Notes: generated by a model from the sequence alone, not told the origin. Counted from the stretch's first letter, positions 4,674 through 28,328 are shown. The stretch: DNA of 64,000 nucleotides from an uncultured delta proteobacterium (GCA_963765675.1 CAVXXK010000001.1:1184001-1248000), one strand, 5' to 3'. Translations and numbers: made by a program.

Positions 4674-6263
4674 TCAGTTGTTTGACGGCGACTGGATCTT
4701 TTGCAGCACCTGATCGAGATTGAAGCTGCCGGGCTTGGAGCGTGGCGGAAATTCCTTGAAGCTTTCAAGGAACTGGCCGACGATAACCTGCGCGGGCACA
4801 AATGCCCACGCATTATCGACGCGCCAACGAGGATAGTCTTCGGATTCTTCGGCTCGCTCGAAAGGATCCATCCGCAGATTCAACAACATCGGCAGGCGGA
4901 GGGCGACATATGGTTCCTGCCAGACTTCCAACCCATGCGCGCGCTGTATCGAAAACAACATCTTCCAGTCGCCATATCGCAGCGCGGAGAGTGATCCGTC
5001 GTCGGTGAAGTAGAAGAACTCCTTGCGTCCGCTGGGGCCTTTTCCCTCCAACATCGGCAACTGATTATATCCATCGAGGTGTACCTTGTAGGTTTTTCCT
5101 CCGACCGAATAGCCGGTCAGCAGTTTCTCCTTAATGTCGGGTTGAGTGCAGGCAGCCATCAGTGTCGGAACCCAGTCCAGCAGCGAAATGATGTCGTTTG
5201 AGGTGGTGCCTGGCTTGATGTGTCCAGGCCACTTCACCATCATCGGGACCCGAAAGCCGCCTTCCCAAGTGGTGTTCTTCTCTCCGTGGAACGGCGTCAT
5301 CCCGCCGTCAGGCCAGAACAGGAGCTCGGCCCCATTATCAGTGGTATAGATGACGACGGTATTGTCCGAGATTCCCAGCTTGTGGAGTTCGGCAAGCAGT
5401 TGGCCTACCTGGCCATCATGCTCGACCATTCCGTCGGCGTAAACGCCGAGACCAGTCTTACCCTTCGACTCAGGCTTGAGGTGGGTCCAGATGTGCATGC
5501 GTGTGGTGTTGATCCAAACGAAGAACGGATTGCCAGCTTTGTTGGCGCGTTCCATGAAGTCGATGCCGCTTTTGAGAAACTCGTCGTCGGCGGTCTCCAT
5601 TCTTTTGCGGGTGAGCGGACCGGTGTCCTGGCATTTTTGCTTGCCCATCACGCCGAAGCGCGGATCGACAGTGGAATCAAACGAGTTCGTGGCGTAGCAA
5701 TGCAGCACTCCGCGCGGCCCGAATCGTTGCATGAATTTCGGATCTTTCGGGTATTGCTCCTGTTCAGGCTCTTCTTCGGCATTGAGGTGATATAGATTGC
5801 CGAAAAACTCGTCGAAGCCGTGGACGGTTGGAAGAAACTCATTGCGATCGCCGAGGTGGTTTTTTCCAAACTGACCAGTGGCGTAGCCGAGCGGCTTGAG
5901 CAATTCAGCAAGCGTCGGGTCCTTGTCGCTCAAACCCTCTTTCGCTCCCGGCAGCCCGACCTTGAGTAGCCCTGTCCGAAATGGACTCTGACCCGTGATA
6001 AACGCCGACCGTCCGGCTGTGCAACTATTCTCCGCGTATGCATCGGTAAATTTCATGCCATCGTTGGCTATACTGTCGATGTTGGGTGTCTTATATCCCA
6101 TCATCCCCTGGTTATAGGTACTGATGTTCCAATAGCCAATATCGTCACCCATGATGACGAGTATGTTAGGCCTCGCAACGTTCGATTGCGCCAGCGCCGT
6201 GCCATGGTTCAGCAGAAGTACCGCCATGAGAATCGGCAAGGCCGCTCTCGTTATTCGAAACAT
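4674..6263 (-). CDS. Secreted arylsulfatase-family protein (Cys-type, CxAxR motif)
   Basis: Signal peptide, PNILVIMGDDIG, SCTAGRSAFITG, GKNHLG, TTDNG, EGGFRVP. Start taken at ATG 6263. Confidence 0.93.
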   Translation of the reverse strand: MFRITRAALPILMAVLLLNHGTALAQSNVARPNILVIMGDDIGYWNISTYNQGMMGYKTPNIDSIANDGMKFTDAYAENSCTAGRSAFITGQSPFRTGLLKVGLPGAKEGLSDKDPTLAELLKPLGYATGQFGKNHLGDRNEFLPTVHGFDEFFGNLYHLNAEEEPEQEQYPKDPKFMQRFGPRGVLHCYATNSFDSTVDPRFGVMGKQKCQDTGPLTRKRMETADDEFLKSGIDFMERANKAGNPFFVWINTTRMHIWTHLKPESKGKTGLGVYADGMVEHDGQVGQLLAELHKLGISDNTVVIYTTDNGAELLFWPDGGMTPFHGEKNTTWEGGFRVPMMVKWPGHIKPGTTSNDIISLLDWVPTLMAACTQPDIKEKLLTGYSVGGKTYKVHLDGYNQLPMLEGKGPSGRKEFFYFTDDGSLSALRYGDWKMLFSIQRAHGLEVWQEPYVALRLPMLLNLRMDPFERAEESEDYPRWRVDNAWAFVPAQVIVGQFLESFKEFPPRSKPGSFNLDQVLQKIQSPSNN

Positions 6264-6347
6264 ATGTTCACCTCTGCGTGGCTTATCGCCCGAGCGCCGC
6301 ATATTGTGTCCACCGAATCGAGTTCGCCATAGCGATCGCACTTCAGA

Positions 6348-7685
6348 CTAGAATTTCCAGATTAGATTGAGAGCGACGAAGTTAAGATAATTCGTTGAGT
6401 AGTGCCCTTGCAGTGTTCCAGCGAGCGGTCCGCGGCTAGCACTGAAAGGGCCGGGGCCTGCGTCCATAAACTCCCAGGCGGCACCGGCGGTTACGTCATC
6501 GTTGATGTCATACTGGATGCCTGTGCCGTATCGCAGTTGACGATCTAAAGGTAGGACGGGAACGCGATTGGTCTTTGAGACAGGCGAGCTGTCATACGCA
6601 AATCCTGCCGACCACAGCCATTTTTCAGCGATCCTGAACTGTTGCCCGATCGCAATCTGGCATGTGTCCGAGAAATGCAGGTTAGCGGTGACGGTCCGTT
6701 GCCTGGCGGTAGAGATTCCGACTGGAAACTCCCCAAACGCAGACCAATTCTGCCATCCTACATTGCCCATTAAACTGAACCTGGGGGTGACGTCGTAGAC
6801 GGCGCTCGCCATTGCCTGCTGCGGCACCTCCATCGGAATGTTGATCTTTGCTCCGCCGATTTTCTTGCGAATGAACGTAAGCGCAGGCCCGAGATTTGTG
6901 AGGTGCGGCCGAAAACCGAACTTGTAATAGACCGGTGATTGATAGGTGAGTCCAATGCGGAGTTTGGCGATCGGCCTGAGCAGTACGCCGACGTTACCGC
7001 CGAATGCTTCATCCCATGATTCGAACGCCAGGCCGCCATCCTGTGCACGCGGAAGAATGTTATTAATCTTCGACTGAAACTTCAGCCGTGCGATCGACAA
7101 GCTGACACCTGCTCCTACGGAGAGCCAGTCGTTCACCTTGTAGGCTATCGACGGGTTGACAGTGCCAGAAACGATTGACTCGTAAGTCACGTAATAGCGT
7201 CCGACCCAGGTCTTGCCGTAGTTGCCGCTAAGGCCAAAATTTGAGTCGACCGCCACGCCGAGCCGGAACCGCTCGGAGAGTTTGTAGACATAGAAGAACG
7301 CTCCCAGCGGGGTAAACACGCCGGAATTTCCGCCGCCACCGCCCGAGGTTGTCGTTTGTGGAGCAACGTCGAAGTTAGTCGAGGGCAGTAGCGCGCCGGA
7401 CGCACCCAGCAGTTGTGAACGGTCGAGCAGAGTCATTCCGGCGGGATTGGCCGCCGCAGTCGAGGCGTCCGCCGCCATTGCAGCTCGGCCGGCGCTGGCG
7501 GTACCGAGATCAGGTGCGCCCGTTTCATACAGCGCCATACCTGCGCCTTGCGCGGACGTAACCCACGCCAGCAAAACGGCTGTTACGAGAAAGATAGTCT
7601 TATGGATCTTACGCGATGTTGCTTGCAGGTGCGTCGACGATTTAGTTTTCCCAACAACACACCGCATTAGAGATTTCATTTTCAA
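6348..7685 (-). CDS. Outer-membrane transport protein, FadL/OmpP1/TodX family
   Basis: ASAGRAAMAADASTAAANPAGM hatch (NPA) motif, amphipathic strands, C-terminal Phe. Confidence 0.9.
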   Translation of the reverse strand: MKMKSLMRCVVGKTKSSTHLQATSRKIHKTIFLVTAVLLAWVTSAQGAGMALYETGAPDLGTASAGRAAMAADASTAAANPAGMTLLDRSQLLGASGALLPSTNFDVAPQTTTSGGGGGNSGVFTPLGAFFYVYKLSERFRLGVAVDSNFGLSGNYGKTWVGRYYVTYESIVSGTVNPSIAYKVNDWLSVGAGVSLSIARLKFQSKINNILPRAQDGGLAFESWDEAFGGNVGVLLRPIAKLRIGLTYQSPVYYKFGFRPHLTNLGPALTFIRKKIGGAKINIPMEVPQQAMASAVYDVTPRFSLMGNVGWQNWSAFGEFPVGISTARQRTVTANLHFSDTCQIAIGQQFRIAEKWLWSAGFAYDSSPVSKTNRVPVLPLDRQLRYGTGIQYDINDDVTAGAAWEFMDAGPGPFSASRGPLAGTLQGHYSTNYLNFVALNLIWKF

Positions 7686-7743
7686 ATCGCCTCACTCTGG
7701 CCCGATCTATCGAGCGATCGTCTGGATGCGCAAATCGTTGCCA

Positions 7744-8610
7744 TCAGAGCTGCAAATCAGGGAAGAGCAGCGTCAAACCGAACCTGACGGTGTACATCGG
7801 GGTGATGTTTGTATTCTGCCTATAGGTCGTCCACTCTCCGGATACCCACGGATCGAACTTCAGGCCAGAAACCTTCCAGACGCGGCCAATGCCGAAACTT
7901 ATTGGGATCGTGGTCGAACCGCCGTGGCGCCAATTGACTGTCCACGTCGAGTCGGAAGATTTGACGTACCAGCCATGACCGAGAGTGTACGAAATCCTCG
8001 GTTGAAATTGCATTTGGCTTTGGGGCGTCGCCGAAGAGTTCGTGTACCCAATCGATATGGGATTCTGGAAAATAAAACCGATCATCAAACGCGGGATTCC
8101 GCGATATGCCGCAGCGGCCGCAGGTCCCGCTTGCCAGGCATGACTTCCCGCAGCGGAAACTCTCCCCGTCGGTAATACAAAGGTCGGCCCAACGCCCCAG
8201 CCAAATCCGGTTTTTTTCGGATCAGGCCAGTTAGAGACGAATAGATCAAAAAGCTCCATATCCTGGTACTCGGTTATCGTCGAACTGCTGGATGAGGTCG
8301 CGATCTGTGAAACTTTAAAGGTTGGGCGGATGATCTGCTGAAATGGGAACTCGGAAAATGCTTGTATCGGCACAATCGGGCGAAGCTGAATTGTGTTCGT
8401 CTGCGCGGACGTTTGAAAATTTCTGGGAGTATACAGATCCTGAAACTGGAGCTGGGCAAGAATCGCGGTCGGGTCTTCTATCTCCGTGGCGAGATGATCC
8501 TCTTCAGTCTCAGCGCCCGCCGAATTGAGTGTTATGGTATGATCACGGATACCACAGGTAAGCACAATTGTCAGAGTAAGTGCGCATGACGCGATCGTCC
8601 AAGGTTTCAT
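7744..8610 (-). CDS. Exported putative beta-barrel protein (family often auto-annotated 'neuromedin U', found near sulfatases)
   Basis: Signal peptide, GWGVGPTFVLPT, WQAGPAAA, TVNW..TIPISFGIGRV, alternating hydrophobic strands. Confidence 0.6.
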   Translation of the reverse strand: MKPWTIASCALTLTIVLTCGIRDHTITLNSAGAETEEDHLATEIEDPTAILAQLQFQDLYTPRNFQTSAQTNTIQLRPIVPIQAFSEFPFQQIIRPTFKVSQIATSSSSSTITEYQDMELFDLFVSNWPDPKKTGFGWGVGPTFVLPTGRVSAAGSHAWQAGPAAAAAYRGIPRLMIGFIFQNPISIGYTNSSATPQSQMQFQPRISYTLGHGWYVKSSDSTWTVNWRHGGSTTIPISFGIGRVWKVSGLKFDPWVSGEWTTYRQNTNITPMYTVRFGLTLLFPDLQL

Positions 8611-8619
8611 CGCTTCACA

Positions 8620-9063
8620 CTAGTCTTCTAATAGAGTTCCCTTGATCAGCATCGGAATGACAGGGGTAATGGCAGACTGCAGGTTCCACTTCTGGCCGAA
8701 CGCTTCGGGATGAACCGGCATGTACTGGCCTTGAACCTGAAACTTCACAGGAAGCGGGCCAATCTTGATTATTTTGCCGACATTCAGGCCGATAGGAAAC
8801 GTGACTTCGTTGCCGCTCTTGTTGGCGTTCCAGTTGACAAGCATGTTCGGTGAAGTGCCTATCCCCCATCCATCGCCAGGGAGGTAAACGAAGAAATATT
8901 GAAGGTTCATTTGGCTGACGGTCTGCGAGCCTGGTCCTCCGACTGAAAACCACTGCTGAATAAAGACCCCTGCTAGCGATTTATCACCGAGGTAGCCAAA
9001 CACCCGGCGGGTCCAAGCTGCTATTTCTTTTGACCCAGTCTTGAGCAAATCGGTTTTTCACGA
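8620..9063 (-). pseudogene. Truncated, frameshifted paralog of the 7744-8610 family
   Basis: Only the C-terminal half remains. An alternative frame reads RLGQKK*QLGPAG (TAG at 9021-9023), then a 1-nt shift leads into VFGYLGDK. Confidence 0.65.
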
Positions 9064-10009: not shown

Positions 10010-10324
10010 TTAGTTGCCAATTGTCTGACTCTGGACAAAGACGCTGCCCTTCGGCCCGATTCGAACGCACTCGCCCTGGCCAGTGTAATCGGGGCTGCAC
10101 ACCGGTTTGTCAGCCGCCGGACACTTATAGAGCCCCGCGCCGAGCTGCTGGCATTTGCTCAGATCGAAATGCAACTCGGTTTGTGCCAGGGCAGCTTGCT
10201 GGGACGCCGGCTGAGGCTCGGACGAAGAGCAACCGCAGAGTAGCAGAAGCCCCAGCACTGCGAAGGCTATAGCTATTCGCTTCGCCGTGTGTTCCACCCT
10301 AGTTCCTGTATTTGAGTCCGTCAT
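10010..10324 (-). CDS. Small Cys-rich lipoprotein
   Basis: SD AAGGAAGGA before ATG 10324, lipobox LLCGC, four further Cys in the mature part. Confidence 0.65.
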   Translation of the reverse strand: MTDSNTGTRVEHTAKRIAIAFAVLGLLLLCGCSSSEPQPASQQAALAQTELHFDLSKCQQLGAGLYKCPAADKPVCSPDYTGQGECVRIGPKGSVFVQSQTIGN

Positions 10325-10489
10325 CGAGGTTCCTTCCTTGCGTTTTGATCCGTTTTCGCGTTTGAGCGTAACACTGTAGGTGCAAGGGCGTGTGGTTTTT
10401 CGCGTTCTAAAGGCTATTTCTTTCGTGGGCAGCAGCCCGCAATACTGACGGCCGGTCTCAATAGACCGCCCGTTAGATTGCGTATTCAC

Positions 10490-12169
10490 CTATTGACCTT
10501 CATGCTGCTTCATCATTTCCTCGACCTGAGCTTTCACAGCTTGAAGGTTGAAAGTGGCCGGCGCCTGCATCGGAGGATAGTCGATAGCCGACATCGCGAG
10601 TTTCTGGACGTACTTTTGTACCATCACGAAGCGCCAGAACTCGCGTGCCATGAAGTCATTCATGTAACCTCCGCCCATTTCGTTTAGGCTCTCGCCGCGG
10701 AGATCCGGCGTACGCTCGAATGGATCTTGGCGGAGATTTACGATGGTGGGCATGTCGGTGGTGACCTTCTCCCCAGGCCATCCGTTTGGTTGCTGGACGA
10801 ACTGGTACTTGAAGTCATCGATGCGCACGGCTCCGAGGTGTGGTCCGCCGAAGTAAAAGATCTCGTGGCGCCTCGATTCACCTTTGCCATTAATCAAATC
10901 GATCTGGTTATAACCATCGAGGTGGTTCTTGTACTCGCGATCGCCGAGTGTCACTCCTTTCAGGAGTTGATCGGTGATATTGGCATTGCCAGCTGCCGCC
11001 GAGAGCGTGGGTAGCCAGTCGAGTCCGGAGAAGATACCGTTCTCAACTCGGCCAGGTTGAATGTGGCCCGGCCAGCGCACGATACATGGTACCCGGAAAC
11101 CCCCTTCAAAGGTGGTGCCTTTGGTGGCTTTGAACGGGGTCATGCCGCCGTCGGGCCAGGTGAAGACTTCGGCGCCGTTGTCCGTGGTGAAGATGACTAT
11201 GGTGTTGTCAGCCTCGCCAATGTCATCGATGTGCTTGAGGAGCGCGCCGACACTGTCATCCATCTGCGCCATGCCGGCCTCTTCGACGTTGTAATTATTC
11301 TTTGCGTTCATCATCGCCTGATACTTCGGCGGAAGGTAGGTAAAGACGTGCATGCGAGTAGTATTGTGCCAGATGAAGAATGGCTTCCCGTCGCTCTTGG
11401 CCTTGTCCATGAAGCGATCGGTGTTCTGGACCAATACGTCATCGAATGTCTCCATGTCGTATTTTGCCTGACGACCCTCCTGCCAGTTTTGCAGGTCTTT
11501 CATATTGGGAAATGGCGCAAGCGGACCCTCATCCTTAATCTTCTGTTTTCCGACCTTGCCCCAGCGCGGCATCACACTAGTGTCGTCGGTGTCCGAGGCC
11601 CAGCAGTGCGTGAGATTGCGCGGCCCGGTCTTGTCTATCCAGTCCTGGGGGTAGTCGAACCAGTACGGATCTGACATCGCGTCGAGGTGGTACAAATAGC
11701 CGAAGAATTCGTCAAAGCCGTGCACGCACGGAAGGTATTTGTTCAGATCTCCAAGATGGTTCTTGCCGAACTGGGCAGTTTCGTAGCCCTGTGCCTTCAG
11801 GATGGTGGCCAGAGTGACGGCCTGAGCCGGCAGCCCCACGTCAGCGCCGGCCTGCCCAACGGTTGTCAAACCGGTACGTAGGGGTAACTCACCGGTGATG
11901 AAATTGGCCCGTCCTGCGGTACAGCTCGCCTCGGCATAGTAATCGGTAAAAATCATGCCTTGGGATGCTAGTTTGTCGAGATTCGGCGTCTTGCCAGACA
12001 TGATTCCACGGTGGTAAGCGCCGATGTTAAACCATCCGACGTCGTCGCCCATGATGACGATAATGTTGGGCTTTTTGTCCTGAGCCCACGCCAAGTGCGC
12101 GATGGGCAGGATCATGACTACGCCGAGCAGCATCGCAATAGCGAAATATCTGGGTTTCGAACCAAACAT
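10490..12169 (-). CDS. Secreted arylsulfatase-family protein (Cys-type, CxAxR motif)
   Basis: Signal peptide, KPNIIVIMGDDVG, SCTAGRANFITG, GKNHLGD, TTDNG, EGGFRVP. Confidence 0.93.
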   Translation of the reverse strand: MFGSKPRYFAIAMLLGVVMILPIAHLAWAQDKKPNIIVIMGDDVGWFNIGAYHRGIMSGKTPNLDKLASQGMIFTDYYAEASCTAGRANFITGELPLRTGLTTVGQAGADVGLPAQAVTLATILKAQGYETAQFGKNHLGDLNKYLPCVHGFDEFFGYLYHLDAMSDPYWFDYPQDWIDKTGPRNLTHCWASDTDDTSVMPRWGKVGKQKIKDEGPLAPFPNMKDLQNWQEGRQAKYDMETFDDVLVQNTDRFMDKAKSDGKPFFIWHNTTRMHVFTYLPPKYQAMMNAKNNYNVEEAGMAQMDDSVGALLKHIDDIGEADNTIVIFTTDNGAEVFTWPDGGMTPFKATKGTTFEGGFRVPCIVRWPGHIQPGRVENGIFSGLDWLPTLSAAAGNANITDQLLKGVTLGDREYKNHLDGYNQIDLINGKGESRRHEIFYFGGPHLGAVRIDDFKYQFVQQPNGWPGEKVTTDMPTIVNLRQDPFERTPDLRGESLNEMGGGYMNDFMAREFWRFVMVQKYVQKLAMSAIDYPPMQAPATFNLQAVKAQVEEMMKQHEGQ

Positions 12170-12191
12170 TGGAATCCTCCTGACGCTCTTT

Positions 12192-12926
12192 TCAGTGGGA
12201 GGTCGATGTCTGAACGCCGAACGATACCAGACGTTGATCCGTCAGCTCGGCCCAGTAGTCGATGGCGTGCTCAGCATCGCCCCACTGGAACACCGTTACG
12301 TTGGTGACGGACGTTCCCCCGACCCGCTTGTCAACCGCGGCCGCTAGCAACTGTCCCGATGTGGAATCGTTCAGCTTAAGCGCTCCTTGCGCTGAACCTA
12401 CGAACGCGTATGTGCCCGTGGCCGCCATCTTTATCAAGCTGAGCGCGCGAGCCTGAGGGACTATGACTGAAACGCTACGCAAAACGGGTACAGCTGAGGT
12501 GGCGTCGGTCAAAGCGACGGAGAGCTTCAACACGCCCGGCCCAGGCTGATCGACGATGACGAAGTTCTTTCCAAGATCTTTCACCAAGACGTTGTATGTG
12601 TAGTCGCATAACGCCTGCTGGTCTGCTGCGGAAACTTTGGAATCGTCATTCGCCCAGAAGGTGACGGGAGCAATCATGATTTTGTTGTAGCTGTTCCAGT
12701 TAGCGCTCGGATTGACGTAACGGAGCATCGCCTTCTGGTCCGAGCCTTCTGCGGGAGGTGTCAGCAGTGAGTAGTCATTGCCCAGAAATCCAGTCGGCGG
12801 TGGTGCGGCCGGGGTTTCACCTGACGCGCGCTGGATAAGGTTTGGTTCCGGAGCGGCTGTTTGCGAACAGCCGGCTAGTAACAATCCAGCAACCAGAACA
12901 GATAACAATCCTATAGTGCTCTTCAT
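12192..12926 (-). CDS. DUF3313-like lipoprotein
   Basis: Lipobox LLAGC, TGFLGNDYSLL, YNKIMIAPV, DSTSGQLLAAAVDKRVG. Start taken at ATG 12926. Confidence 0.75.
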   Translation of the reverse strand: MKSTIGLLSVLVAGLLLAGCSQTAAPEPNLIQRASGETPAAPPPTGFLGNDYSLLTPPAEGSDQKAMLRYVNPSANWNSYNKIMIAPVTFWANDDSKVSAADQQALCDYTYNVLVKDLGKNFVIVDQPGPGVLKLSVALTDATSAVPVLRSVSVIVPQARALSLIKMAATGTYAFVGSAQGALKLNDSTSGQLLAAAVDKRVGGTSVTNVTVFQWGDAEHAIDYWAELTDQRLVSFGVQTSTSH

Positions 12927-13001
12927 GTGTCTTCTTTCCCGAATCATCGTTTTCCTCCGACTCTTTGTCTCTGTCGTTACAAGTAATAAACGCAACTGCG
13001 A

Positions 13002-14363
13002 CTATTCGCCCTCGCGCAATGCCCACCCATTGGCCGCTAGTTGCTGGCGGGCGAGAGGTGTCATCTTACCGGTTATCCAAAGCACGCGGTGCCGCAACTT
13101 TATCAACTGAGGATCAGTCGCAAAGCCCGCGATACGCTCGGTCCACGATAGGTAGTCTACCGGCGCGGGCAGTATCACAGCGTGATTCTGATCGTGTGCA
13201 ACCAACACGCCCGGAGCCTGAATTTTGGTAATCGGACTCTTTTTTCGGCCCCATTGATCGAGCATATGCAGCGAAGTAACCAGAAACCGCGCCTGGTACT
13301 CGGTCATCACGTTGGCCAAAGCAACCGCGGCCGCGCGACGTCCCGGAATGTCGCCGAGGCCTTCGAGGTCTTTGAGCGCGGAAACCTGCAGGCTTAACGG
13401 AATGGCGTTATTGCTGCCGAAGGCGGCGATCTCTTCAGGTGACAATCCTAGTTTCTTCAACTTCTTTTGAACCAGCAGAATAAGGTCGGCTTTCGGAGTC
13501 TGATAGACGAGATCGTCGGTGACCTCTAGGCTTGTAATGATCATCGACCCAGGGACTGCCAGCATTGCTGTATCTACGGTCATGCGAGCCGAGAACATTA
13601 CCCAGGCGACCTTGTTCAGTTTCTTCGTGAGTATCGGATCGGAAGAGTAGGGATCGACCCGAAGCTTTCTCGCGAGATCGCGACGGACTTGATCGTAGCC
13701 CAATGCGGTCAACGTGGCGTTGGCGGTCTCGCCGGCAGCTTTTCCAGTTCCGGGAGAACTAGTCGCCGACGTATATATTTGACCGGCACCTAGATTGACG
13801 CGGCCAAAGAGTTCTCCGACTCCGCTGGGCAATCCGGAAATCGTATCCATCGGATGGACAACCATGTTTGCAGTATCTGTGATCGGGCGTTCCGCGCTGG
13901 AGGCGAGTGCTTTGGCGAAAACGCCGGTCTCACTTATGTTCTCCAACTGCGCGATTGCCGGAATCTCTGAGAGGCGTATCTTCAATAGATCCAGGCTTTC
14001 GACGTAGTAGGTGCCCGCGTCGCCACGAAACACGCTAGCATCAGCGACGACGGTATATTGACCCATTGCGCCGTTTGTCGGCACCTGTGGCTGCACGGAA
14101 AATCCCGGTCCCGAAAGCGCGCTCGCGGGCAGAAGGTCGGATGCGTTGATGATCGGTGGCTCCTCGTACTGTCCGCCCGGCGCAGCGGCTTCGGGTGGCT
14201 GGATGCTCGCCATAGGCGAAGGCGGTGGTTGTTCAGCAGCGGTTTGCGCGACTTGGGTCGATTCGGGCGCGGCCGTTTGAGAACAACCCGCCAACAAAAA
14301 TCCGGCGAGGAAGGCGGAGGCCAGACTCGTTGCATGCTTTATCCGGTTGGAGTTGGGCTTCAT
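13002..14363 (-). CDS. Hypothetical lipoprotein
   Basis: 453-aa ORF with SD GAGGAG, lipobox LLAGC and a Pro/Ala-rich linker. Confidence 0.75.
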   Translation of the reverse strand: MKPNSNRIKHATSLASAFLAGFLLAGCSQTAAPESTQVAQTAAEQPPPSPMASIQPPEAAAPGGQYEEPPIINASDLLPASALSGPGFSVQPQVPTNGAMGQYTVVADASVFRGDAGTYYVESLDLLKIRLSEIPAIAQLENISETGVFAKALASSAERPITDTANMVVHPMDTISGLPSGVGELFGRVNLGAGQIYTSATSSPGTGKAAGETANATLTALGYDQVRRDLARKLRVDPYSSDPILTKKLNKVAWVMFSARMTVDTAMLAVPGSMIITSLEVTDDLVYQTPKADLILLVQKKLKKLGLSPEEIAAFGSNNAIPLSLQVSALKDLEGLGDIPGRRAAAVALANVMTEYQARFLVTSLHMLDQWGRKKSPITKIQAPGVLVAHDQNHAVILPAPVDYLSWTERIAGFATDPQLIKLRHRVLWITGKMTPLARQQLAANGWALREGE

Positions 14364-14438
14364 CTTCTCCTCAGAGTATTCCTCAGAACTGGGTCCTTCC
14401 GTTCACCACAAGAGTCGTAGGTTTTCCGAGGAAGCGAT

Positions 14439-14456
14439 ATTGTACTTTGGTACAAT
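14439..14456. promoter_or_regulatory. Palindromic operator ATTGTAC-TTTG-GTACAAT
   Basis: Perfect 7-bp arms in the divergent intergenic region. Recurs at 19867 and 24334. Confidence 0.75.
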
Positions 14457-14539
14457 GGCGTATATGTCCGCCGCGGATGCAGAATGCTTGCAAATGGTGA
14501 CGGATCTGATCCGCACCATTTTCTCGCAGCCGGTATCAT

Positions 14540-14926
14540 TTGTTGGAAAAGAAATCGACGGCCACAATCATTGTTGTAGATGACGACACGTCGTGCCTGC
14601 GCGCGCTGCGACGACAATTGCAGATTCTGGGATTCAGCGTACGGGACTATCAGAGCGCGAAAGCGTTTCTGGCAAGCCAGGTTCCAACCGGCGACGTATG
14701 TCTGCTGTTGGACGTCTACATGCCGGGAATGACCGGGATAGAACTATGCCAGAGTCTGGCAGCCTCAGGACGCTGCCTGCCGACGATCCTGATAAGCGGC
14801 CGCGACGATGAACCAACCAAGAAAATGATTCGCGACGCAAAGCCGATTGCGAGCTTGCTCAAACCGTTCGATGAGAAGGACTTGCTGCGAGCACTCCGAA
14901 AGGCATTGCGACATCAGCGGAATTAA
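14540..14926 (+). CDS. Stand-alone response regulator receiver domain (FixJ-like REC)
   Basis: IIVVDDD, CLLLDVYMPGMTG (phospho-Asp), ISGR, LKPF. No output domain. Confidence 0.9.
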   Translation: MLEKKSTATIIVVDDDTSCLRALRRQLQILGFSVRDYQSAKAFLASQVPTGDVCLLLDVYMPGMTGIELCQSLAASGRCLPTILISGRDDEPTKKMIRDAKPIASLLKPFDEKDLLRALRKALRHQRN

Positions 14927-17237: not shown

Positions 17238-17380
17238 CGTCGTCTCTCCCAAGCCAAGGTTTCTTGCGAAACGCCGAGAGATGGTAGAACTCTGACGAAG
17301 TTGAGGCAAATCGACTCTAGCCTCATATGGACGAATTTGGTCCTTCGCGGAACAAATAGTCTCCGCACCCCAGCCACAGG

Positions 17381-19822: not shown

Positions 19823-19866
19823 TTTCGCGATCCAATCGAGCTTTCCGCCAATTTCCCTGGAAAGAC

Positions 19867-19884
19867 ATTGTACCTTGGTACAAT
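19867..19884. promoter_or_regulatory. Palindromic operator ATTGTAC-CTTG-GTACAAT upstream of the pqi operon
   Basis: Perfect 7-bp arms. Followed after 19 bp by GATGCAGAATG, as at the 14439 copy. Confidence 0.75.
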
Positions 19885-19975
19885 AGTCGTCTTCCCACGC
19901 AGTGATGCAGAATGTATCGTCCGTCAATGAAGTGAGTGCTTTGCGGATTTCGAGCGGCGAGGCGGCGATTGCTCA

Positions 19976-20662
19976 GTGTATAGCGAACAGTTCAACCAGC
20001 CGGTCGCCGACGCGTCGCTCATCGCCTGCGCCCATTGCGATCTGCTACAGCGACTCCCCGACCTTGCGCCCGGCGCATCCGCGCGATGTCCGCGCTGCAA
20101 CAAAGAGCTGTGGCGCTGTCGTCAGGATTCGCTCAACCGGACACTCGCGCTGACGCTCGCCGCGGCGGTGCTCTATATTGTCGCGAACTCCGTTCCCATG
20201 CTCGGTCTCACCATCGTGGGGCGCGGCGCGTCGACTACGGTAATCGGGGGCGCCCAACATCTATGGGACAATGGGCAGCGAATCGTCGGTGTGTTGGTTC
20301 TATTTACCGCCGTGGTCGCGCCCGCGCTGCAAATCGGCTTGATGCTGGCGATCGTGCTCGGCGGTTTGCGTGAGCGTCCGCCAAAATGGGTGGGTAGATT
20401 GCTGCGGCATCATCCGACCACACGCATCTGGAGCATGATCGAAGTCATGATGGTGGGCGTGTTGGTCGCGTTGGTGAAGATTGCGGACTACGCGACTGTG
20501 ATCCCCGGCATCGCACTTTTCGTGCTGTGGGTGCTGGTTTTTGTGCTGGCCGGCATGCAGGCGAGCTTCGACCCCAAGGAGATTTGGGAAAGGATCCGAT
20601 GGGCTGACGACGATGCGCGAAGCACCACCGTCGCCGACGAGACGGCCGAGGGTATTTTGTGA
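19976..20662 (+). CDS. pqiA: Paraquat-inducible protein A, N-terminal half
   Basis: CAHCDLL..CPRC zinc ribbon, TM helices, WSMIEV..VALVKI. Confidence 0.9.
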   Translation: MYSEQFNQPVADASLIACAHCDLLQRLPDLAPGASARCPRCNKELWRCRQDSLNRTLALTLAAAVLYIVANSVPMLGLTIVGRGASTTVIGGAQHLWDNGQRIVGVLVLFTAVVAPALQIGLMLAIVLGGLRERPPKWVGRLLRHHPTTRIWSMIEVMMVGVLVALVKIADYATVIPGIALFVLWVLVFVLAGMQASFDPKEIWERIRWADDDARSTTVADETAEGIL

Positions 20663-21315
20663 GTCCGATTGCAATCACCGGGATGCAGCGTGGCCTGCAA
20701 AGCTGCGAAGGTTGCGGTCTGCTCTCGCGTCCGGCACCGGGCACTGACGAAGGACGCTGCCCGCGTTGCGGCGAAGCGCTCGAGTTTCGCAAGCGCGCCA
20801 GTTTCCAGCGGACGTGGGCATACGTGCTCGGAGCGGCGATTTGTTACGTTCCGGCCAACGTGCTCCCCGTCTTGACGACCACAACCGCTGCCGGCGCTGA
20901 ATCCGACACGATCATGCAAGGCGTCGTATTGCTGTGGTCGCCAACGGGATGGCCGCTGTCGATCATCGTGCTAATCGCGAGCATCATAATCCCGAGCGCG
21001 AAGATCTTGGCGCTCGCATACCTGCTTATCACCGCACAGCGGGGCTCAGCGGCGAACAACGAACAGCGGATCCGCTTGTACAGGATGGTCGCGTTCGTCG
21101 GGCGCTGGTCGATGGTCGATGTGTTCGTCGACACGTTCACGGCAGCGCTAATTCAGCTCCAGCCGTTGATGTCCGTAGAGCCGGGACCCGGTTTGATTTT
21201 CTTTGCCGCCGTGGTGGTGCTGACGATGCTCGCGGTGGAGTCGTTCGACCCGAGATTGATTTGGGATTCCATAAGTTCGCAAGAGACAGGTTCGGAAGAG
21301 GTTTCTTATGCCTGA
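20659..21315 (+). CDS. pqiA: Paraquat-inducible protein A, C-terminal half
   Basis: CEGC..CPRC, YVPANVLPV, VGRWSMVDVFV, FDPRLIWD. GTGA overlap with the previous gene. Confidence 0.9.
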   Translation: MSPIAITGMQRGLQSCEGCGLLSRPAPGTDEGRCPRCGEALEFRKRASFQRTWAYVLGAAICYVPANVLPVLTTTTAAGAESDTIMQGVVLLWSPTGWPLSIIVLIASIIIPSAKILALAYLLITAQRGSAANNEQRIRLYRMVAFVGRWSMVDVFVDTFTAALIQLQPLMSVEPGPGLIFFAAVVVLTMLAVESFDPRLIWDSISSQETGSEEVSYA

Positions 21316-22897
21316 TCGCGATCCGCCACGCTCCTCGATCCCGGAGTCGAGAGCTATCCCCAAGAAACGCACACGGCTCTCGCTGGTTTGGATTATTCCG
21401 ATTGTCGCGGCGATTGTCGGTGCGTGGGTGGCAGTCACGAGAGTATTGAGCGAGGGTCCCAAGATAACGATCGTGATGAAATCCGCAGAGGGACTGGAAG
21501 CCGGCAAAACCAAAATTCACTATAACGGCGTCGATATCGGCACCGTCACAAAGATAGAACTGTCGGAAGATCACCAGCACGTCATCATGACCGCGCAGAT
21601 GGCGCCGAAGACCGATGCATTTCTCGTTGAAGATACCAAGTTCTGGGTAGTGAGGCCGCGGATATCCGGCGCCAATGTCACGGGGCTTGGGACTCTTATT
21701 TCTGGAGCGTACATCGGCGTGGAAATAGGCTCTTCGAGGGAAAGCAAGCGTGACTTTACCGCGCTCGAAACACCCCCGGTGATAACCGGCGAGATTCCCG
21801 GACGCTTTTTCATCTTGAAGACACCCGACCTCGGTTCGCTGGACACGGGTACCCCGATATTCTTCCGCCGGCTGCAAGTCGGCCAGGTCGCATCTTACGA
21901 ACTCGACAAGGACGGCAAGAATCTGACGGTCAAGGTATTCGTGCAGTCGCCGTATGATCAGTACGTCAATCCGGAGACCCGCTTTTGGCACGCGAGCGGA
22001 ATCGACTTGTCGCTCTCTGCGACGGGTCTCACTGTACAGACCCAATCGGTACTGTCGATCCTGATAGGCGGCATCGCGTTCGAGACGGCAGCGAGTGATC
22101 CGATTTTGCCGCCGGCCGAGGAAAATGCCGTCTTCACGCTCTATGCCAATCGGTCCCAGGCCTTTAACCCTCCTCCGCGCAATCCGCAGACCTATGAGCT
22201 CATTTTCAAAGACTCAGTGCGGGGCTTGGCGCCTGGCGCGCCGGTCGAGTTCCGCGGCATCCCGATTGGACAGGTGACCGATGTTCGCGCGCAGATTGAC
22301 CTGAAGACTTTCGAGTTCCTGGTGCCGGTAACTATCCAACTCGATCCGACGAGACTCGGAGTAAAGATCGTCGGTGCACCCTCACCCAACTATCTCGAGA
22401 TTATGCGCAGAAAGTTGATCGACAGCATGGTCGCCCACGGAGTTCGCGCGCAGTTGCGGACCGGGAACCTCCTGACTGGCGCCGTGTACGTGTCGCTCGA
22501 CTTCTTCCCCGGCGCGCCCCAGGCGACCGTGGACTGGTCGCAGAAACCAGTGCGGCTGCCAACCACGCCGGGCCAGCTCGAAGCGACCGAGACGACGGTC
22601 GAGAACATCATCAAGAAAGTCGACAAGATGCCCCTCCAGGAGATTGGCAACAACCTTAACAAGGCTATCGCCAGCCTTGATCTGACGCTGGTAAGCGCGC
22701 GCGGCGCGATAGACAGCACCAACAATCTCGTCGGTAACGCCAACCATCTGGTCTCGCCGGATTCCACGCAAGCACAGAAGCTGGACAACACCCTTGAGGA
22801 GGTGAGCCGCGCCGCACGCTCCGTTCGGGTGCTGGCCGACTACCTGTCGCGCCATCCCGAGGCGCTTATCAGAGGTAAGCAAGGGAGGCCGAAGTAA
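21308..22897 (+). CDS. pqiB: PqiB, three-MCE-domain intermembrane transport protein
   Basis: SLVWIIP, AEGLEAGKTKI, FWVVRPRI, RFWHASGI, SVRGLAPGAPVEFRGI, YLSRHPEALIRGK. Confidence 0.93.
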   Translation: MPDRDPPRSSIPESRAIPKKRTRLSLVWIIPIVAAIVGAWVAVTRVLSEGPKITIVMKSAEGLEAGKTKIHYNGVDIGTVTKIELSEDHQHVIMTAQMAPKTDAFLVEDTKFWVVRPRISGANVTGLGTLISGAYIGVEIGSSRESKRDFTALETPPVITGEIPGRFFILKTPDLGSLDTGTPIFFRRLQVGQVASYELDKDGKNLTVKVFVQSPYDQYVNPETRFWHASGIDLSLSATGLTVQTQSVLSILIGGIAFETAASDPILPPAEENAVFTLYANRSQAFNPPPRNPQTYELIFKDSVRGLAPGAPVEFRGIPIGQVTDVRAQIDLKTFEFLVPVTIQLDPTRLGVKIVGAPSPNYLEIMRRKLIDSMVAHGVRAQLRTGNLLTGAVYVSLDFFPGAPQATVDWSQKPVRLPTTPGQLEATETTVENIIKKVDKMPLQEIGNNLNKAIASLDLTLVSARGAIDSTNNLVGNANHLVSPDSTQAQKLDNTLEEVSRAARSVRVLADYLSRHPEALIRGKQGRPK

Positions 22898-23487
22898 TGG
22901 GATTCCGTATCGCGTATTTTCTCTCGATCTCGTTGCTCGTAGCTACTGTAGCAGGATGCGCCACGGCGCCGTCGCGGTTCTACTCGCTCGATTCCACTGC
23001 TATCGCCGACGGCGCCCCAGCCACTTCAGTTACCGTCATGGTCGGTCCGGTTGTTGTCCCCGCTGCGGTCGACCAACCCGAATTTGTGGTCAACACCTCC
23101 CCAAACCGGGTCGAGGTCGACGAGTTCAATCGTTGGGTTTCGCCGCTGAGCGACGCCATCGCACGCGCTGTCGCCGGCGACCTTGTAGTCCTGCTCGGCA
23201 CGCCGAACGTGGCCACTGCGCAACTGGCTAACTTTAATCCCGAGTACCAGGTGACGATCGACGTCCTGCAATTCGAGTCTGTTCCCGGCCAGGCAGCGAC
23301 GCTGGCGGCAGTATGGACCGTGCGCAAATCAGACGGCGGAGAAATCCGCTCGGGCCGGACGGCCGCGCGTGAGTCCGTGCAGGGACCAGGCTTCGACGCG
23401 CTTGCAGCCGCGCACAGCAGAGCGATCGCGAAGGTGAGCGCCGACATCGCGACAGCAATCCGAGCGGAAGCCGAACAGAAATCCTAG
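22897..23487 (+). CDS. pqiC: PqiC-family lipoprotein
   Basis: Lipobox VAGC, SRFYSL, VDQPEFV, NRWVSPL. TAATG coupling to pqiB. Confidence 0.88.
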   Translation: MGFRIAYFLSISLLVATVAGCATAPSRFYSLDSTAIADGAPATSVTVMVGPVVVPAAVDQPEFVVNTSPNRVEVDEFNRWVSPLSDAIARAVAGDLVVLLGTPNVATAQLANFNPEYQVTIDVLQFESVPGQAATLAAVWTVRKSDGGEIRSGRTAARESVQGPGFDALAAAHSRAIAKVSADIATAIRAEAEQKS

Positions 23488-23522: not shown

Positions 23523-24287
23523 GTGATCGGACAACTGCGAGAGGCCATTCATCTTCGTCTCTCGCCTCACAGGCATACTGCGCTGCTCGCCGCGATCGTC
23601 GCTGCATTTTTGGTGCGTCCACTGGTCGGCGACTCCGGAATGGGTCCTCCGGCTTTCAGTATTGCAATGTTGGCGCTGCTATTGCTGGCGCTCTACAATA
23701 TCAATGTCGATGAGCTGGTCGGAGACCGGGAAACCCTTCTAGCCCAGCGGCGGAAGCGAAGCATCATAGCCTGGACGTTGGGAGTTCCGGCGATTGCGGA
23801 ACGATTCGTGATTCCGTTCGAGCCAACCCATTCACTCTACCTGGCCGGCTCGATTTTGTGGCTACTGCTCTTTGCTTTCATTACGTGGAATGAATTGCGC
23901 GCCGTACTCAGACAGAAAGAGATCACCGCGGAAGTCATTAGTATGTCGATCTCGGTATATCTGCTGTTCGGACTGACCTTCGGGCTTCTCTATATTGTGC
24001 TTCACGACATCCAGCCAAATGCGTTCAGCTTCGGTGGCTCGGGCCCGGCTTCCGAGCAGCAAGTCATCCCCGTACTTATCTACTTCAGTCTGACGACACT
24101 TTCGACCATCGGATTTGGCGACATCACTCCACTCACTCTGCAGGCCCGCTACGCGGCAGTGGCAGAAGGCATCACCGGACAGTTCTATTTGGCGATTCTG
24201 GTCGCCCGCCTGGTAGGCTTACAAATGAGCCAATCCGTACGCCAGCCAGCTTCATCCAGGACCGTCGATTCCCACCGCGCAGAGTGA
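23523..24287 (+). CDS. Potassium-channel (Ion_trans_2) family membrane protein
   Basis: Pore helix and filter YFSLTTLSTIGFGDITP, several TM helices. Confidence 0.85.
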   Translation: MIGQLREAIHLRLSPHRHTALLAAIVAAFLVRPLVGDSGMGPPAFSIAMLALLLLALYNINVDELVGDRETLLAQRRKRSIIAWTLGVPAIAERFVIPFEPTHSLYLAGSILWLLLFAFITWNELRAVLRQKEITAEVISMSISVYLLFGLTFGLLYIVLHDIQPNAFSFGGSGPASEQQVIPVLIYFSLTTLSTIGFGDITPLTLQARYAAVAEGITGQFYLAILVARLVGLQMSQSVRQPASSRTVDSHRAE

Positions 24288-24333
24288 TCCGGCTATCGGC
24301 CTGATTAAGACTCGGACGTCTCCGGGTCTTCTC

Positions 24334-24351
24334 GTTGTACCAAAGTACAAT
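24334..24351. promoter_or_regulatory. Operator GTTGTAC-CAAA-GTACAAT upstream of the third sulfatase
   Basis: The 21 nt TTGTACCAAAGTACAATATCG (24335-24355) are the exact reverse complement of 14435-14455. Confidence 0.75.
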
Positions 24352-24461
24352 ATCGTTCCATGCTGGCGCGCAGTATTAACACCCCAGAGTGGTGATGGCA
24401 GAAGGCGACATCCGCACCAGGCGTCTTGAAGTTTGAGCGCCTACTCAGACGGAGAAGATCT

Positions 24462-26975: not shown

Positions 26976-27052
26976 GGCGGCAAGGAGCAATAGCACGTAA
27001 GCCCGGAGCGGTCGAAACACCAGTGATTAACGAAGATCGCGACTCTGAGAAA

Positions 27053-27499
27053 ATGAAATCCGCGCCGGAGCTAACTTCCCTAGACGCTCTGTACACCGCG
27101 ACCGCAGTGATTGAGCTCGGCGCCGGCTGCGCACTGCTGTGTTTCCCCGCGGTGAGTGTGGCGCTCCTGCTGGGAGCGCCGCTGGAGGCACGGGCTGCCC
27201 TGACCGTGGCGCGCGTCGGCGGATGCGCTTTGCTTACTCTGGGCGCGGCCTGCTGGCTTGCGCGCGGCGACTCGCAAAGCCGCGCCGCAAAAGGATTGGT
27301 CGCCGCGATGGTGGTATATAATCTCGGCGCAGTAGTCATTCTCGGAGCTACCGGTATCCGATGGCAGCACATCGGCGTCGCTCTGTGGCCAGCCGTAATG
27401 TTGCATGCGGCAATGGCGGCTTGGTGCATCGTAAGCCTTTTTAGCTGGAAGCATGGGCAAGAAACCGGCTCTACCGACGGCCTGTTTGACCGTGTTTAG
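27053..27499 (+). CDS. Small multi-pass membrane protein
   Basis: About four hydrophobic segments, in series with the neighbouring genes. Confidence 0.6.
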   Translation: MKSAPELTSLDALYTATAVIELGAGCALLCFPAVSVALLLGAPLEARAALTVARVGGCALLTLGAACWLARGDSQSRAAKGLVAAMVVYNLGAVVILGATGIRWQHIGVALWPAVMLHAAMAAWCIVSLFSWKHGQETGSTDGLFDRV

Positions 27500-27572
27500 A
27501 GAAACCGGACCGTGACGTCCGCCGGAATTTCACGATAACCTCGATGGCAATCGAAATTCGGAGAGGACGTTT

Positions 27573-28328
27573 GTGAGCGCAACGAACATCGGGTTTATCG
27601 TGTTGGCGTGCGTCTTTGGCGGTGCGCTTCTCGGGATGTTTCTTCGGGGGATTCTGCCTGAGCATCATCTGAGCGCGGATTCCAAGGATGTTATCAAGCT
27701 GGGGATGGCACTGACCTCGATGATGTCGGCATTGGTACTCGCTCTGCTGATCAACTCGGCCAAGAGTTCCTACGACACACAGAGAAACGAGGTTAGACAG
27801 CTCTCCGCCAACGTCATCCTGCTTGATCGGGTGCTCGCTCATTATGGGCCAGAGACGAAGACGGCGCGCGAGATGCTCGCCAACACGGTTGCTGAGATGA
27901 TTTCTCGGATCTGGCCCGATAGCCACTCGGCAGGCACTGAGTTGCAGCCGAACATTGCCGCGGGTGAAGGCTTCTACGATAAGATCCAGGAACTCTCGCC
28001 GCAGAACGAAGTTCAGCGCTCGCTACAGTCTCAGGCGTTGAAGATGAGCATCGATCTCGGGCAGACACGATGGTTACTGTTCGAGCAAGCGGGCAGCTCG
28101 ATCCCTATGCCATTCCTTGTATTAATGGTTTTCTGGATCACTGTTATCTTTCTGAGTTTCGGGCTTTTCGCGCCCCGCAATGCGACCGTCGTCGCTACCA
28201 TATTCCTCTGCGCCTTTTCGGTTTCAGGTGCGATCTTTCTGATCCTGGAGCTGGATCGGCCCTTCGGCGGGCTGATTCAGATTTCCGATGCTCCGCTGCT
28301 CAGCGCCGTCGCTCATCTCGGCAAGTAG
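27573..28328 (+). CDS. DUF4239/bestrophin-like membrane protein
   Basis: LPEHHLSADSKDVIKLG, SAKSSYD, LDRVLAHYGPE, LELDRPFGGLI. Confidence 0.75.
   Translation: MSATNIGFIVLACVFGGALLGMFLRGILPEHHLSADSKDVIKLGMALTSMMSALVLALLINSAKSSYDTQRNEVRQLSANVILLDRVLAHYGPETKTAREMLANTVAEMISRIWPDSHSAGTELQPNIAAGEGFYDKIQELSPQNEVQRSLQSQALKMSIDLGQTRWLLFEQAGSSIPMPFLVLMVFWITVIFLSFGLFAPRNATVVATIFLCAFSVSGAIFLILELDRPFGGLIQISDAPLLSAVAHLGK

Follow-up and report, generated by a model that had tools for sequence, protein, structure and literature searches.

Channels of the FadL type serve for the uptake of hydrophobic compounds from outside the cell, and LolA-like carriers handle hydrophobic molecules as well. Among the machines built on MCE domains, the actinobacterial Mce systems are driven by ATP-binding cassette (ABC) components, with YrbE permeases and the MceG ATPase, and LetB contains many more MCE rings than PqiB. 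In the accessible part of one source, Mce1 and Mce4 are described as carrying hydrophobic cargo, and a link between Mce2 and the accumulation of sulfolipid is called unresolved (PMC13492129); apart from Mce2, no published hint of a connection between an MCE system and a sulfated lipid was found. A further source states, in the part available, that most of the sulfur in aerobic soils is organic, sulfate esters included, and describes the ats/sft locus of Pseudomonas with the ABC importer AtsRBC, a TonB-dependent receptor and a LysR regulator (PMC3596284). Here, we describe a block of about 24 kb in which Pqi genes are combined with a FadL-type channel, three sulfatases and a two-component system. 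It lies in a stretch of 64,000 nucleotides from an uncultured bacterium (GCA_963765675.1, CAVXXK010000001.1:1184001-1248000), the whole of which is called the window; positions are counted from its first letter. The block very probably represents one regulon and one functional module, as is suggested by a conserved palindrome and by gene linkage in relatives. The wider statement that it is an accessory envelope regulon which moves an amphipathic sulfate ester, control and mechanism included, is tentative and falls somewhat short of an even chance. The first-pass annotation of this DNA knew of no characterised system joining these parts; in line with this, no paper was found that joins Pqi, FadL and sulfatases, or that deals with sulfatases in Binatota.

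The block and its candidate operator

The nearest contigs to the window belong to soil metagenome-assembled genomes (MAGs) of Candidatus Binataceae / Binatus, and the comparative evidence comes from one bacterial class, mostly from one family, which is uncultured and represented by MAGs only. The genome carrying the window (G000; G, C and L denote genomes, contigs and loci, respectively) has a size of 4.5 Mb, is 95.6% complete and shows a contamination of 4.3%. Genes were identified by listing of open reading frames (ORFs), by Pfam and NCBIfam profile searches and by reading of the translations; gene starts are estimates throughout.

The first-pass annotation had placed the block at 4674..28328. 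The block itself is real; its borders, however, lie at about 4620 and 28622, as set by comparison with G009, a genome of the same genus. There, both flanks match the window collinearly, with 93-94% DNA identity, as far as 4619 and again from 28623, and the position of the block is occupied by 5.2 kb of unrelated peptidase and amidohydrolase genes plus a 111-bp remnant of pqiA1. The guanine-cytosine (GC) content of the block is 56.4% versus 61.5% for the genome, which is within the lowest 1.04% of 2117 genome windows of 24 kb; the GC profile, proposed earlier as a check of island status, thereby puts the block in the lowest ~1%. Two traits of genomic islands are found, namely a base composition that is atypical and, among close relatives, the presence or absence of the block between flanks that are conserved. 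No integrase or transposase was matched by Pfam in the block and its immediate flanks, the window contains no tRNA genes, and no Rfam RNA families were found in 4000-29500. Judged from these sequence comparisons, the block is gained or lost as one presence/absence unit.

Three sulfatases with signal peptides, the FadL-type channel, an octahaem cytochrome with TPR repeats, a split pqiA followed by pqiBC, a K+-channel protein (Kch) and a DUF4239-like protein had been named in the first-pass annotation, and all of them were confirmed by Pfam, NCBIfam and the translations (Table 1). The claim that almost only exported or membrane proteins are encoded also holds: according to the translations, all products save the kinase and two receiver proteins carry an export signal, a lipobox or membrane segments. 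Other entries had to be amended in part. The number of lipoproteins is four rather than three (lip453, DUF3313, lip159 and PqiC), and the block's own two-component system is present, with two receiver proteins. Of the second barrel family, brl288 is intact, but the ORF at 8620-9048 is a pseudogene, because the same barrel of ~290 amino acids is full-length with a signal peptide in five other loci (L044, L077, L082, L084 and L067); in L040 and L052 it is decayed. The leftward run from 14363 to 4674 comprises, in this order, lip453, DUF3313, sulfatase 2, lip159, the DUF3108-like gene, the barrel remnant, brl288, FadL and sulfatase 1.

A sign of common control is the palindrome ATTGTAC-N4-GTACAAT, which lies in three intergenic regions of the block. 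As had been noticed for three promoter regions, it recurs exactly, as TTGTAC-N4-GTACAA at 14440, 19868 and 24335. With up to two mismatches allowed, three matches were found versus 0.46 expected, and one of 100 shuffles reached three. The 4.5-Mb genome contains five exact sites, three of them in the block, and a weight-matrix scan of the genome returned the same five sites and nothing more above 14 bits. In 47 related loci (925 kb), 60 sites occur at one mismatch or fewer, which lie upstream of lip453 (35), the solo REC gene (33), pqiA1 (6) and sulfatase 3 (1) or near no mapped gene (13); none of the 60 lies inside a mapped gene. For 33 sites in relatives, the distance to the estimated start of solo REC is 84-108 bp, mostly 92-100 bp. 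The arms of the palindrome are invariant and the central 4 nucleotides variable, as is expected for a site bound by a dimeric protein rather than for a hairpin. Among the unassigned sites, some are followed by further genes for exported products (DUF2092, large Ig-domain proteins, a sulfatase fragment) and others by genes whose products are not exported (bactofilin, cyclase) or by family-less ORFs.

REC-GerE, the FixJ-like response regulator of the block, is the candidate operator-binding protein because it possesses a LuxR-type helix-turn-helix (HTH) domain and co-occurs with the palindrome. In a set of 92 loci, each at least 6 kb long, 49 contain both an orthologue of the system and the palindrome, 2 the orthologue only, 4 the palindrome only and 37 neither; both loci with an orthologue and no palindrome are of borderline identity. 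These counts are descriptive and carry no statistical test, since the loci are kin and the main site adjoins the system's own genes. The promoters of solo REC and pqiA1 share the same short -10-like hexamer at the same distance (~40 bp) downstream of the site, and a palindrome near -40 fits an activator-like positioning, as far as promoters can be predicted. A palindrome of the FNR/CRP type was considered and rejected, as the half-site spacing is unlike the FNR and CRP consensus sites and the block contains no Crp/Fnr gene. Orthologues of REC-GerE span just 76-78% of the ORF, and its true start is probably near 17190.

The two exact sites elsewhere in the genome represent one locus on two near-identical contigs, where they precede genes for a secreted HAD-type hydrolase and a 241-aa secreted 2H-like protein. 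The stretches C10 1-19450 and C1:911000-928000 (L006 and L005) have the same operator and the same gene order, namely TetR, DUF1326, PpoB2, the 241-aa secreted protein, the HAD hydrolase and an FAD monooxygenase; this looks like assembly redundancy or a second strain. The HAD hydrolase was rejected as a conserved member of the regulon, as the operator is absent, at two mismatches or fewer, from the loci of its G001 orthologue and its G035 homologue. A 139-aa ORF without family match, 24305-24724 (-), spans operator 3 and the start of sulfatase 3 and is probably no gene.

Linkage of the components in related genomes

Full-length lip453 is found in 11 of 61 relatives, with four more matches covering the signal-peptide region only; PqiB occurs in 27 and the cytochrome-TPR in 22 of them. 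These tallies include G010 and G027, both flagged as unpublished, on which no main claim depends. By their occurrence in these genomes, lip453, the cytochrome and PqiB are all accessory, and their distributions overlap without being identical. Loci around lip453 were collected by conserved-stretch alignment, whereby at least 580 matches were obtained and the closest 80 of them retained; distant lineages are therefore under-sampled. Within 10 kb to either side of 47 lip453 relatives, any sulfatase is present in 36 loci, any barrel in 35, the two-component system in 39 and Pqi genes in 14; about 0.06 sulfatases are expected per 21 kb, calculated from 12 per 4.5 Mb. The gene order shifts across the 47 loci while the linkage stays. 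In five of them (L051, L053, L054, L070 and L071), lip453, sometimes followed by DUF3313, is succeeded by a sulfatase, a barrel or FadL, pqiA1, pqiA2, pqiB, pqiC and Kch, all co-directional with gaps below 600 bp, and the bestrophin-like gene closes this string in L051, L054 and L071. In L172, fadL, the cytochrome-TPR gene, pqiA1A2BC and Kch stand in line, and in L180 a DUF3108-like gene sits between pqiC and Kch.

A second sample of 14 Pqi-centred loci, selected independently of lip453, contains Kch in 6, a barrel in 5 and a sulfatase, DUF3313 and the cytochrome in 3 loci each. Kch follows pqiC directly, in the order pqiC-Kch, in 13 of the 47 lip453-centred and 6 of the 14 Pqi-centred loci; among 25 related loci, pqiA is split in 24 and fused in the remaining one. 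The pair of orf158 and sulfatase 3 recurs in L048, L176 and L180. Furthermore, among 11 metagenome contigs of at least 6 kb, whose lip453 homologues are 41-50% identical, five (L123, L142, L144, L146 and L161) carry sulfatases, FadL, MCE plus an auxiliary lipoprotein, or DUF3313 beside lip453. Co-occurrence of the components, whose lack had been named earlier as a refuting outcome, is thus favoured within the one class covered. Of the former idea of one pathway, the part that stands is a linked, probably co-regulated module, for which a conserved operator, linkage that withstands rearrangement and the loss or gain of 24 kb as a unit speak.

The shifting gene order can also be read in another way. 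The region might be a mosaic of independent modules with a common regulator for the general scavenging of ester sulfur, perhaps also of phosphorus, and with no common substrate or pathway; their proximity would then result from the accumulation of accessory envelope genes in a single variable region. The modules would be (i) lip453, DUF3313 and a sulfatase, (ii) the DUF3108-like gene, a barrel and FadL, (iii) pqiAABC and Kch, (iv) sulfatase 3 and orf158, and (v) the two-component system and the cytochrome. They reshuffle freely and each is found without the others in some loci, the operator also precedes the HAD hydrolase and the 2H-like protein in the same genome, and an HAD homologue lies between two sulfatase genes in G035:C9. 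However, the five strings in which modules i to iii are fused and co-directional are hard to explain without functional coupling, the DUF3108-like gene of L180 is interleaved inside the pqi-Kch string, and one operator serves the lip453, pqi and sulfatase-3 modules. A mosaic of this kind is unlikely, without being far-fetched. G035 contains four lip453 paralogues (on C1, C3, C5 and C9) in four different contexts, one of them Pqi-fused. In G009, pqiA1A2BC is present at a separate site (C3:674245-675831), where PqiB is 97% identical and DUF3313 is nearby, with neither Kch nor the palindrome; at least one independent move of the Pqi module follows from this.

A putative route for amphipathic sulfate esters

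According to the proposed mechanism, a dimer of REC-GerE would bind the operator and switch on four operons (the leftward one of nine genes, that of its own kinase, the pqi operon and the sulfatase-3 operon), whose products would form an envelope route for an amphipathic sulfate ester, for example a sulfate of an alkyl, sterol or lipid compound. The ester would enter across the outer membrane by way of FadL and the small barrels, and periplasmic Cys-type sulfatases would strip the sulfate beside the lipoproteins lip453 and DUF3313. The DUF3108-like protein and the tunnel of split PqiA, PqiB and PqiC would then hand the hydrophobic product to the inner membrane, where the K+-channel-like and bestrophin-like proteins would accompany the Pqi tunnel. 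Such a route is the simplest reading because families for hydrophobic molecules (FadL, PF13557-like barrels, MCE/Pqi and LolA-like proteins) are joined with three sulfatases; that the substrate is an amphipathic sulfate ester is inferred from what is known at the level of these families. The full mechanism, with its uptake direction and its sulfated hydrophobic substrate, is possible and stands somewhat below an even balance.

Table 1. Features of the block, with the number of lip453-centred loci (of 47) that contain each gene.
Feature	Position	Strand	Family match and remarks	Loci
Sulfatase 1	4674..6341	-	PF00884 E 2.1e-51; S1-type Cys sulfatase, CTAGR, signal peptide; last gene of leftward operon	
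FadL/TodX-family outer-membrane channel	6348..7685	-	PF03349 E 9.8e-60, 202.6 bits vs cut-off 29.7	30
brl288, 288-aa outer-membrane barrel, unnamed family	7744..8610	-	no Pfam match	20
Barrel pseudogene remnant	8620..9048	-	C-terminal half of second ~290-aa barrel of brl288 kind	
DUF3108-like secreted protein, 253 aa	9125..9886	-	PF21347 E 4.2e-5, below cut-off	29
lip159, small lipoprotein	10010..10489	-	lipobox LCGC; Cys-rich C-terminus; no family found	10
Sulfatase 2	10490..12169	-	PF00884 E 2e-54; S1-type Cys sulfatase, CTAGR, signal peptide	31
DUF3313 lipoprotein	12192..12995	-	PF11769 E 1.8e-46; lipobox LLAGC	31
lip453, 453-aa lipoprotein, large unnamed family	13002..14363	-	lipobox; first gene of leftward operon	
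Operator 1 (candidate)	14436..14459	.	divergent lip453 / solo REC intergenic region; 40.8 bits	
Solo REC, single-domain response regulator	14540..14926	+	PF00072 E 3.4e-18	34
GAF histidine kinase, cytoplasmic	15130..16482	+	GAF, HisKA, HATPase_c; no membrane segment visible	37
REC-GerE, FixJ-like response regulator (LuxR-type HTH)	16542..17474	-	PF00072 + PF00196	
Octahaem c-type cytochrome, membrane-anchored, HEAT + TPR	17381..19822	+	eight CxxCH; Pfam haem + TPR matches	26
Operator 2 (candidate)	19864..19887	.	upstream of pqiA1; 37.9 bits; equivalent site in G006	
Split PqiA, two genes	19976..20662 and 20659..21315	+	PF04403 E 4.4e-43 and 3.5e-49; CxxC...CxxC zinc ribbon each	
PqiB, periplasm-spanning	21308..22897	+	three MCE stretches, PF02470	
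PqiC-type outer-membrane lipoprotein	22897..23487	+	PF03886 E 6.5e-38; lipobox VAGC	
Kch, K+-channel-like membrane protein	23523..24287	+	PF07885 E 3.5e-11; filter TIGFGD	
Operator 3 (candidate)	24331..24354	.	upstream of sulfatase 3; 23.0 bits; same position occupied in L048	
Sulfatase 3, 849 aa	24426..26975	+	PF00884 E 1.3e-57; CSPTR; export signal; AtsA-like core + unassigned ~230-aa C-terminal extension	
orf158, hydrophobic 158-aa protein	27023..27499	+	no Pfam match	
Bestrophin-like membrane protein	27573..28328	+	PF14023 (formerly DUF4239) E 1.8e-36	

All three sulfatases possess a PF00884 domain with the motif C/S-x-P/A-x-R. Orthologues of sulfatase 1, 93-96% identical, occupy the same position in G001 and G005. 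In sulfatase 2, the residues S82, C83, T84, G86 and R87 are invariant among 16 relatives, and among solved structures 7aj0 is its closest relative (E 1.5e-58) and human arylsulfatase A the next; in the part of the source available, 7aj0 is identified as PsFucS1 of subfamily S1_13. The closest solved relative of sulfatase 3 is the arylsulfatase of P. aeruginosa (1hdh/4cxk, E ~2e-52, residues 93-620). At the outer membrane, the FadL protein scores 119 against the cut-off of 585 of the NCBIfam FadL equivalog. brl288 shows 25% identity (E 5e-19) to an intact paralogue of ~290 amino acids in L044 (16408-17271), which weakly matches PF13557 (E 3.8e-4). For the DUF3108-like protein, 20 of 30 look-alike matches in the Atlas belong to the set carrying PF21347, and from its family we take it to be, possibly, a periplasmic carrier of a hydrophobic ligand. 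lip159 probably starts at an internal Met, giving ~104 amino acids.

The family of lip453 comprises 1804 clusters at 50% identity (E<=1e-3), Pfam returned zero matches among 70 of its members, and the look-alikes in the Atlas, which come from Binatota and Pseudomonadota, are labelled hypothetical. The AF2 model of lip453 is confident (pLDDT 81.3, pTM 0.75), and Foldseek found nothing in the PDB at E<=1e-3. A nuclease-like alpha/beta homologue was rejected, as its VIA Z of 8.3 covers residues 359-453 only and lies inside the background of the tool. For DUF3313, no title or abstract opening was found that deals with its function. Confidence in its AF2 model is low (pLDDT 61.2); the VIA-align Z values obtained with this weak model are 9.9 for TraT, 9.8 for PelC, 8.4 for LptE, 8.1 for PqiC (8q2c_B) and 7.9 for DUF330. 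Mostly outer-membrane lipoproteins are found among the 14 chains with Z>=8, at values near the stated background of 7-8 and with a model of pLDDT 61.2; as a lead, the predicted core of DUF3313 resembles ring-forming or plug lipoproteins of the outer membrane with an LptE/PelC/PqiC-like fold. lip453 and DUF3313 have a nearly identical signal peptide, lipobox LLAGC and linker/first mature residues, and queries with lip453 give secondary matches on the DUF3313 gene in several genomes. This likeness of the 5' ends may reflect a common sorting signal or a recent exchange.

By its domains and gene order, the Pqi part of the block is of the PqiABC kind, with a split PqiA. PqiB matches NCBIfam NF008070 with E 5.7e-131 and 437.9 bits (cut-off 525), and PqiC scores 29.5 with the NCBIfam pqiC model (cut-off 200). 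The conservation of the Kch and bestrophin-like partners hints at an ion flow coupled to PqiA-type transport. It is tempting to speculate that PqiABC might be the inward leg of a nutrient-uptake locus, with the sulfatases organised by lip453 and DUF3313 and with such a coupled ion flow; this more specific proposal is doubtful.

PqiABC has been described, in the available parts of two sources, as a putative system for transporting phospholipid between both membranes (PMC10897342; 10.64898/2026.09.15.751761), which would suit a different role of the block. It could be a regulon for the homeostasis of envelope lipids or for envelope stress, in which Pqi, the barrels and the lipoproteins move or trim lipids of the cell's own outer membrane, which may be sulfated or modified in other ways, the sulfatases act on endogenous components of the envelope and the signal is an internal stress. 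The cytoplasmic kinase suits an internal signal, DUF3313 is predicted to be like LptE, PelC and PqiC of machines that build the envelope, and neither a catabolic enzyme nor an inner-membrane importer for a desulfated product was found in the block with Pfam and NCBIfam. On the other hand, a housekeeping function in the envelope is unlikely because the block is accessory, FadL-type channels take up compounds from outside, and Pfam detected no sulfotransferase or lipid-biosynthesis gene in the block. Moreover, the block-bearing genomes are richer in sulfatases, which resembles a nutritional repertoire: genomes of the genus with the cluster contain 11-12 sulfatase matches versus 4-9 in the rest. 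An envelope-homeostasis role is rather improbable.

The first-pass annotation had further suggested that the substrate might be oxidised, with the octahaem cytochrome at hand. This part was not borne out: the cytochrome gene has no operator upstream in its own genome, is absent from the Pqi-fused strings and is present in just 26 of the 47 lip453-centred and 3 of the 14 Pqi-centred loci. In a stronger version, the octahaem-TPR protein would be the core of a redox module for alcohol oxidation, reduction of sulfur oxyanions or redox sensing. Its eight haem motifs and its protein-binding TPR/HEAT domain would be in agreement with this, and its gene adjoins the regulator gene in 26 of the 47 loci and sulfatase 3 in L048, L073, L075, L079, L098 and L183, and in L172 it forms a line with fadL and pqi. 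On the other hand, none of the five Pqi-fused strings includes it, 21 of the 47 loci lack it, and in G022 and G029 it is broken by frameshifts or stop codons while other parts are kept. Compared with solved structures, no close relative was found, and there is no likeness to solved octahaem enzymes, such as those of the tetrathionate or nitrite reductase type or MccA, beyond weak, partial haem-motif matches to entries that could be assigned to none of these enzymes (6i5b, E 2.5e-8; 6qvm, E 4.5e-6). A redox core is very improbable; going by these loci, the cytochrome-TPR is a frequent yet dispensable associate of the block.

Several observations weigh against the sulfate-ester route. Neither FGE (PF03781) nor anSME (TIGR03942) was matched in the 95.6%-complete genome, and the activity of the sulfatases needs a maturase. 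Sugars, aryl esters and cerebroside are all among the substrates of the sulfatases' solved relatives, which thus give no hint of the substrate here. No inner-membrane importer for sulfate or organosulfates and no CysB- or SftR-type regulator was found in the block by Pfam and NCBIfam, and the kinase is cytoplasmic, so that its signal is not evident. In which direction Pqi systems transport is unsettled, even for E. coli; bidirectional phospholipid transport is reported in the accessible part of one source (10.64898/2026.09.15.751761). As regards linkage, Pqi operons lack nearby sulfatases in L178, L186, L187 and the other site of G009, lip453 stands alone in L047, L074 and L076, and every module occurs alone in some locus; kin loci are not independent, and the conserved linkage may partly be inherited synteny. 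As regards control, scans with promoter and terminator consensus sequences were at background (11 versus 7.4 expected and 24 versus 19, respectively), and the fifth operator site, before the HAD hydrolase, is not conserved in G001. Among the sequencing runs listed as containing the stretch, 16 are of DNA and none is of RNA.

The lack of a recognised maturase is shared within the genus. The window's genome has 12 full-length PF00884 matches, and among the other ten genomes of the genus PF03781 is found in two and is missing from eight, though these contain 4-12 sulfatase matches. The genus may use a formylglycine-forming system other than FGE or anSME, as E. coli does. That lip453 or the cytochrome could be the missing formylglycine maturase is scarcely credible, a candidacy weakened by G002, G007, G008 and G010, which lack lip453, the cytochrome-TPR and PF03781, yet contain 4-7 sulfatase matches.

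The flanks are not regarded as part of the block, because the parts checked (on the left to 4619, on the right to ~29978) occur in G009, which lacks it. The backbone around the block (28761-57519 and 1-4528) encodes many lipid- or steroid-like catabolic proteins according to Pfam, among them a 392-aa Rieske oxygenase, a thiolase beside a ChsH2-type DUF35 protein, MaoC/FAS1-type hydratases, Acyl-CoA_dh_2 proteins, a Baeyer-Villiger-type monooxygenase, luciferase-like monooxygenases and several Amidohydro_2 proteins. Further downstream, at 59009-61595 (-), two overlapping ORFs contain an AAA_16 (STAND-like) ATPase domain (60204-61595) and TPR repeats (59009-60406); an AAA_16/nSTAND gene of similar kind lies near a distant lip453 homologue in L036.

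Comparison with described systems

The regulatory genes are most similar to FixL and FixJ, which are the best NCBIfam matches of the kinase core (E 3e-49) and of REC-GerE (E 1.1e-52), respectively. However, the scores are below the equivalog cut-offs (168 versus 850 for FixL, 178.5 versus 255 for FixJ), the sensor domain of the block's kinase is GAF and not haem-PAS, and a solo REC gene is present in addition. The block offers a clean candidate pair of regulator and operator for a phylum without a cultured member.

Among MCE systems, E. coli PqiABC is alike in the PqiA domains with their zinc-ribbon Cys pairs, in the PqiB with three MCE domains, in the PqiC lipoprotein and in the order A-B-C. 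The block differs from it by the split PqiA, the trailing Kch and bestrophin-like genes, its own two-component operator and its accessory status, and in relatives the Pqi genes are fused to sulfatase, barrel and lipoprotein genes. In LetAB of E. coli, likewise, an inner-membrane partner is paired with an MCE tube that spans the periplasm; the partner's family, PqiA/LetA, has no obvious energy source. In the accessible part of the source, no link to channel-like proteins or sulfatases is mentioned for it (PMC13017536). With the actinobacterial Mce importers, the block may have in common, by analogy, an MCE assembly that carries a hydrophobic nutrient across the envelope, but its inner-membrane partner is of the PqiA type and Pfam detected no ATPase gene in the block. 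The arrangement of Pqi with periplasmic sulfatases, FadL and two channel-like proteins in one operon proposes a concrete class of cargo and a set of partners, and thereby bears on the substrate, the direction and the energy source of Pqi/Let-type MCE tunnels. If the sulfate-ester route is true, Pqi-family systems would gain a defined substrate and direction, and the lip453 family, with its more than 1800 clusters and no Pfam entry, would gain a function; lip453 and DUF3313 are in any case flagged as lipoproteins linked to sulfatases and MCE proteins.

The nearest described locus for sulfate esters is atsACBR-sftR-atsK-sftP of Pseudomonas. Like the block, it unites sulfatases, a component for uptake at the outer membrane and a dedicated regulator, and it occurs in a soil bacterium; its transport parts, however, are entirely different. 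Among the block's 22 ORFs, no match was found to the families of ABC importers, TonB-dependent receptors or LysR regulators; instead, the block encodes sulfatases that are exported, FadL together with small barrels, a tunnel of the MCE type and a two-component system. If true, a widespread route for sulfate esters in Binataceae would bear on the turnover of sulfur and carbon in soils. Taken together, the locus is a real variant of an uptake or envelope locus, which has not been described before in the literature found.

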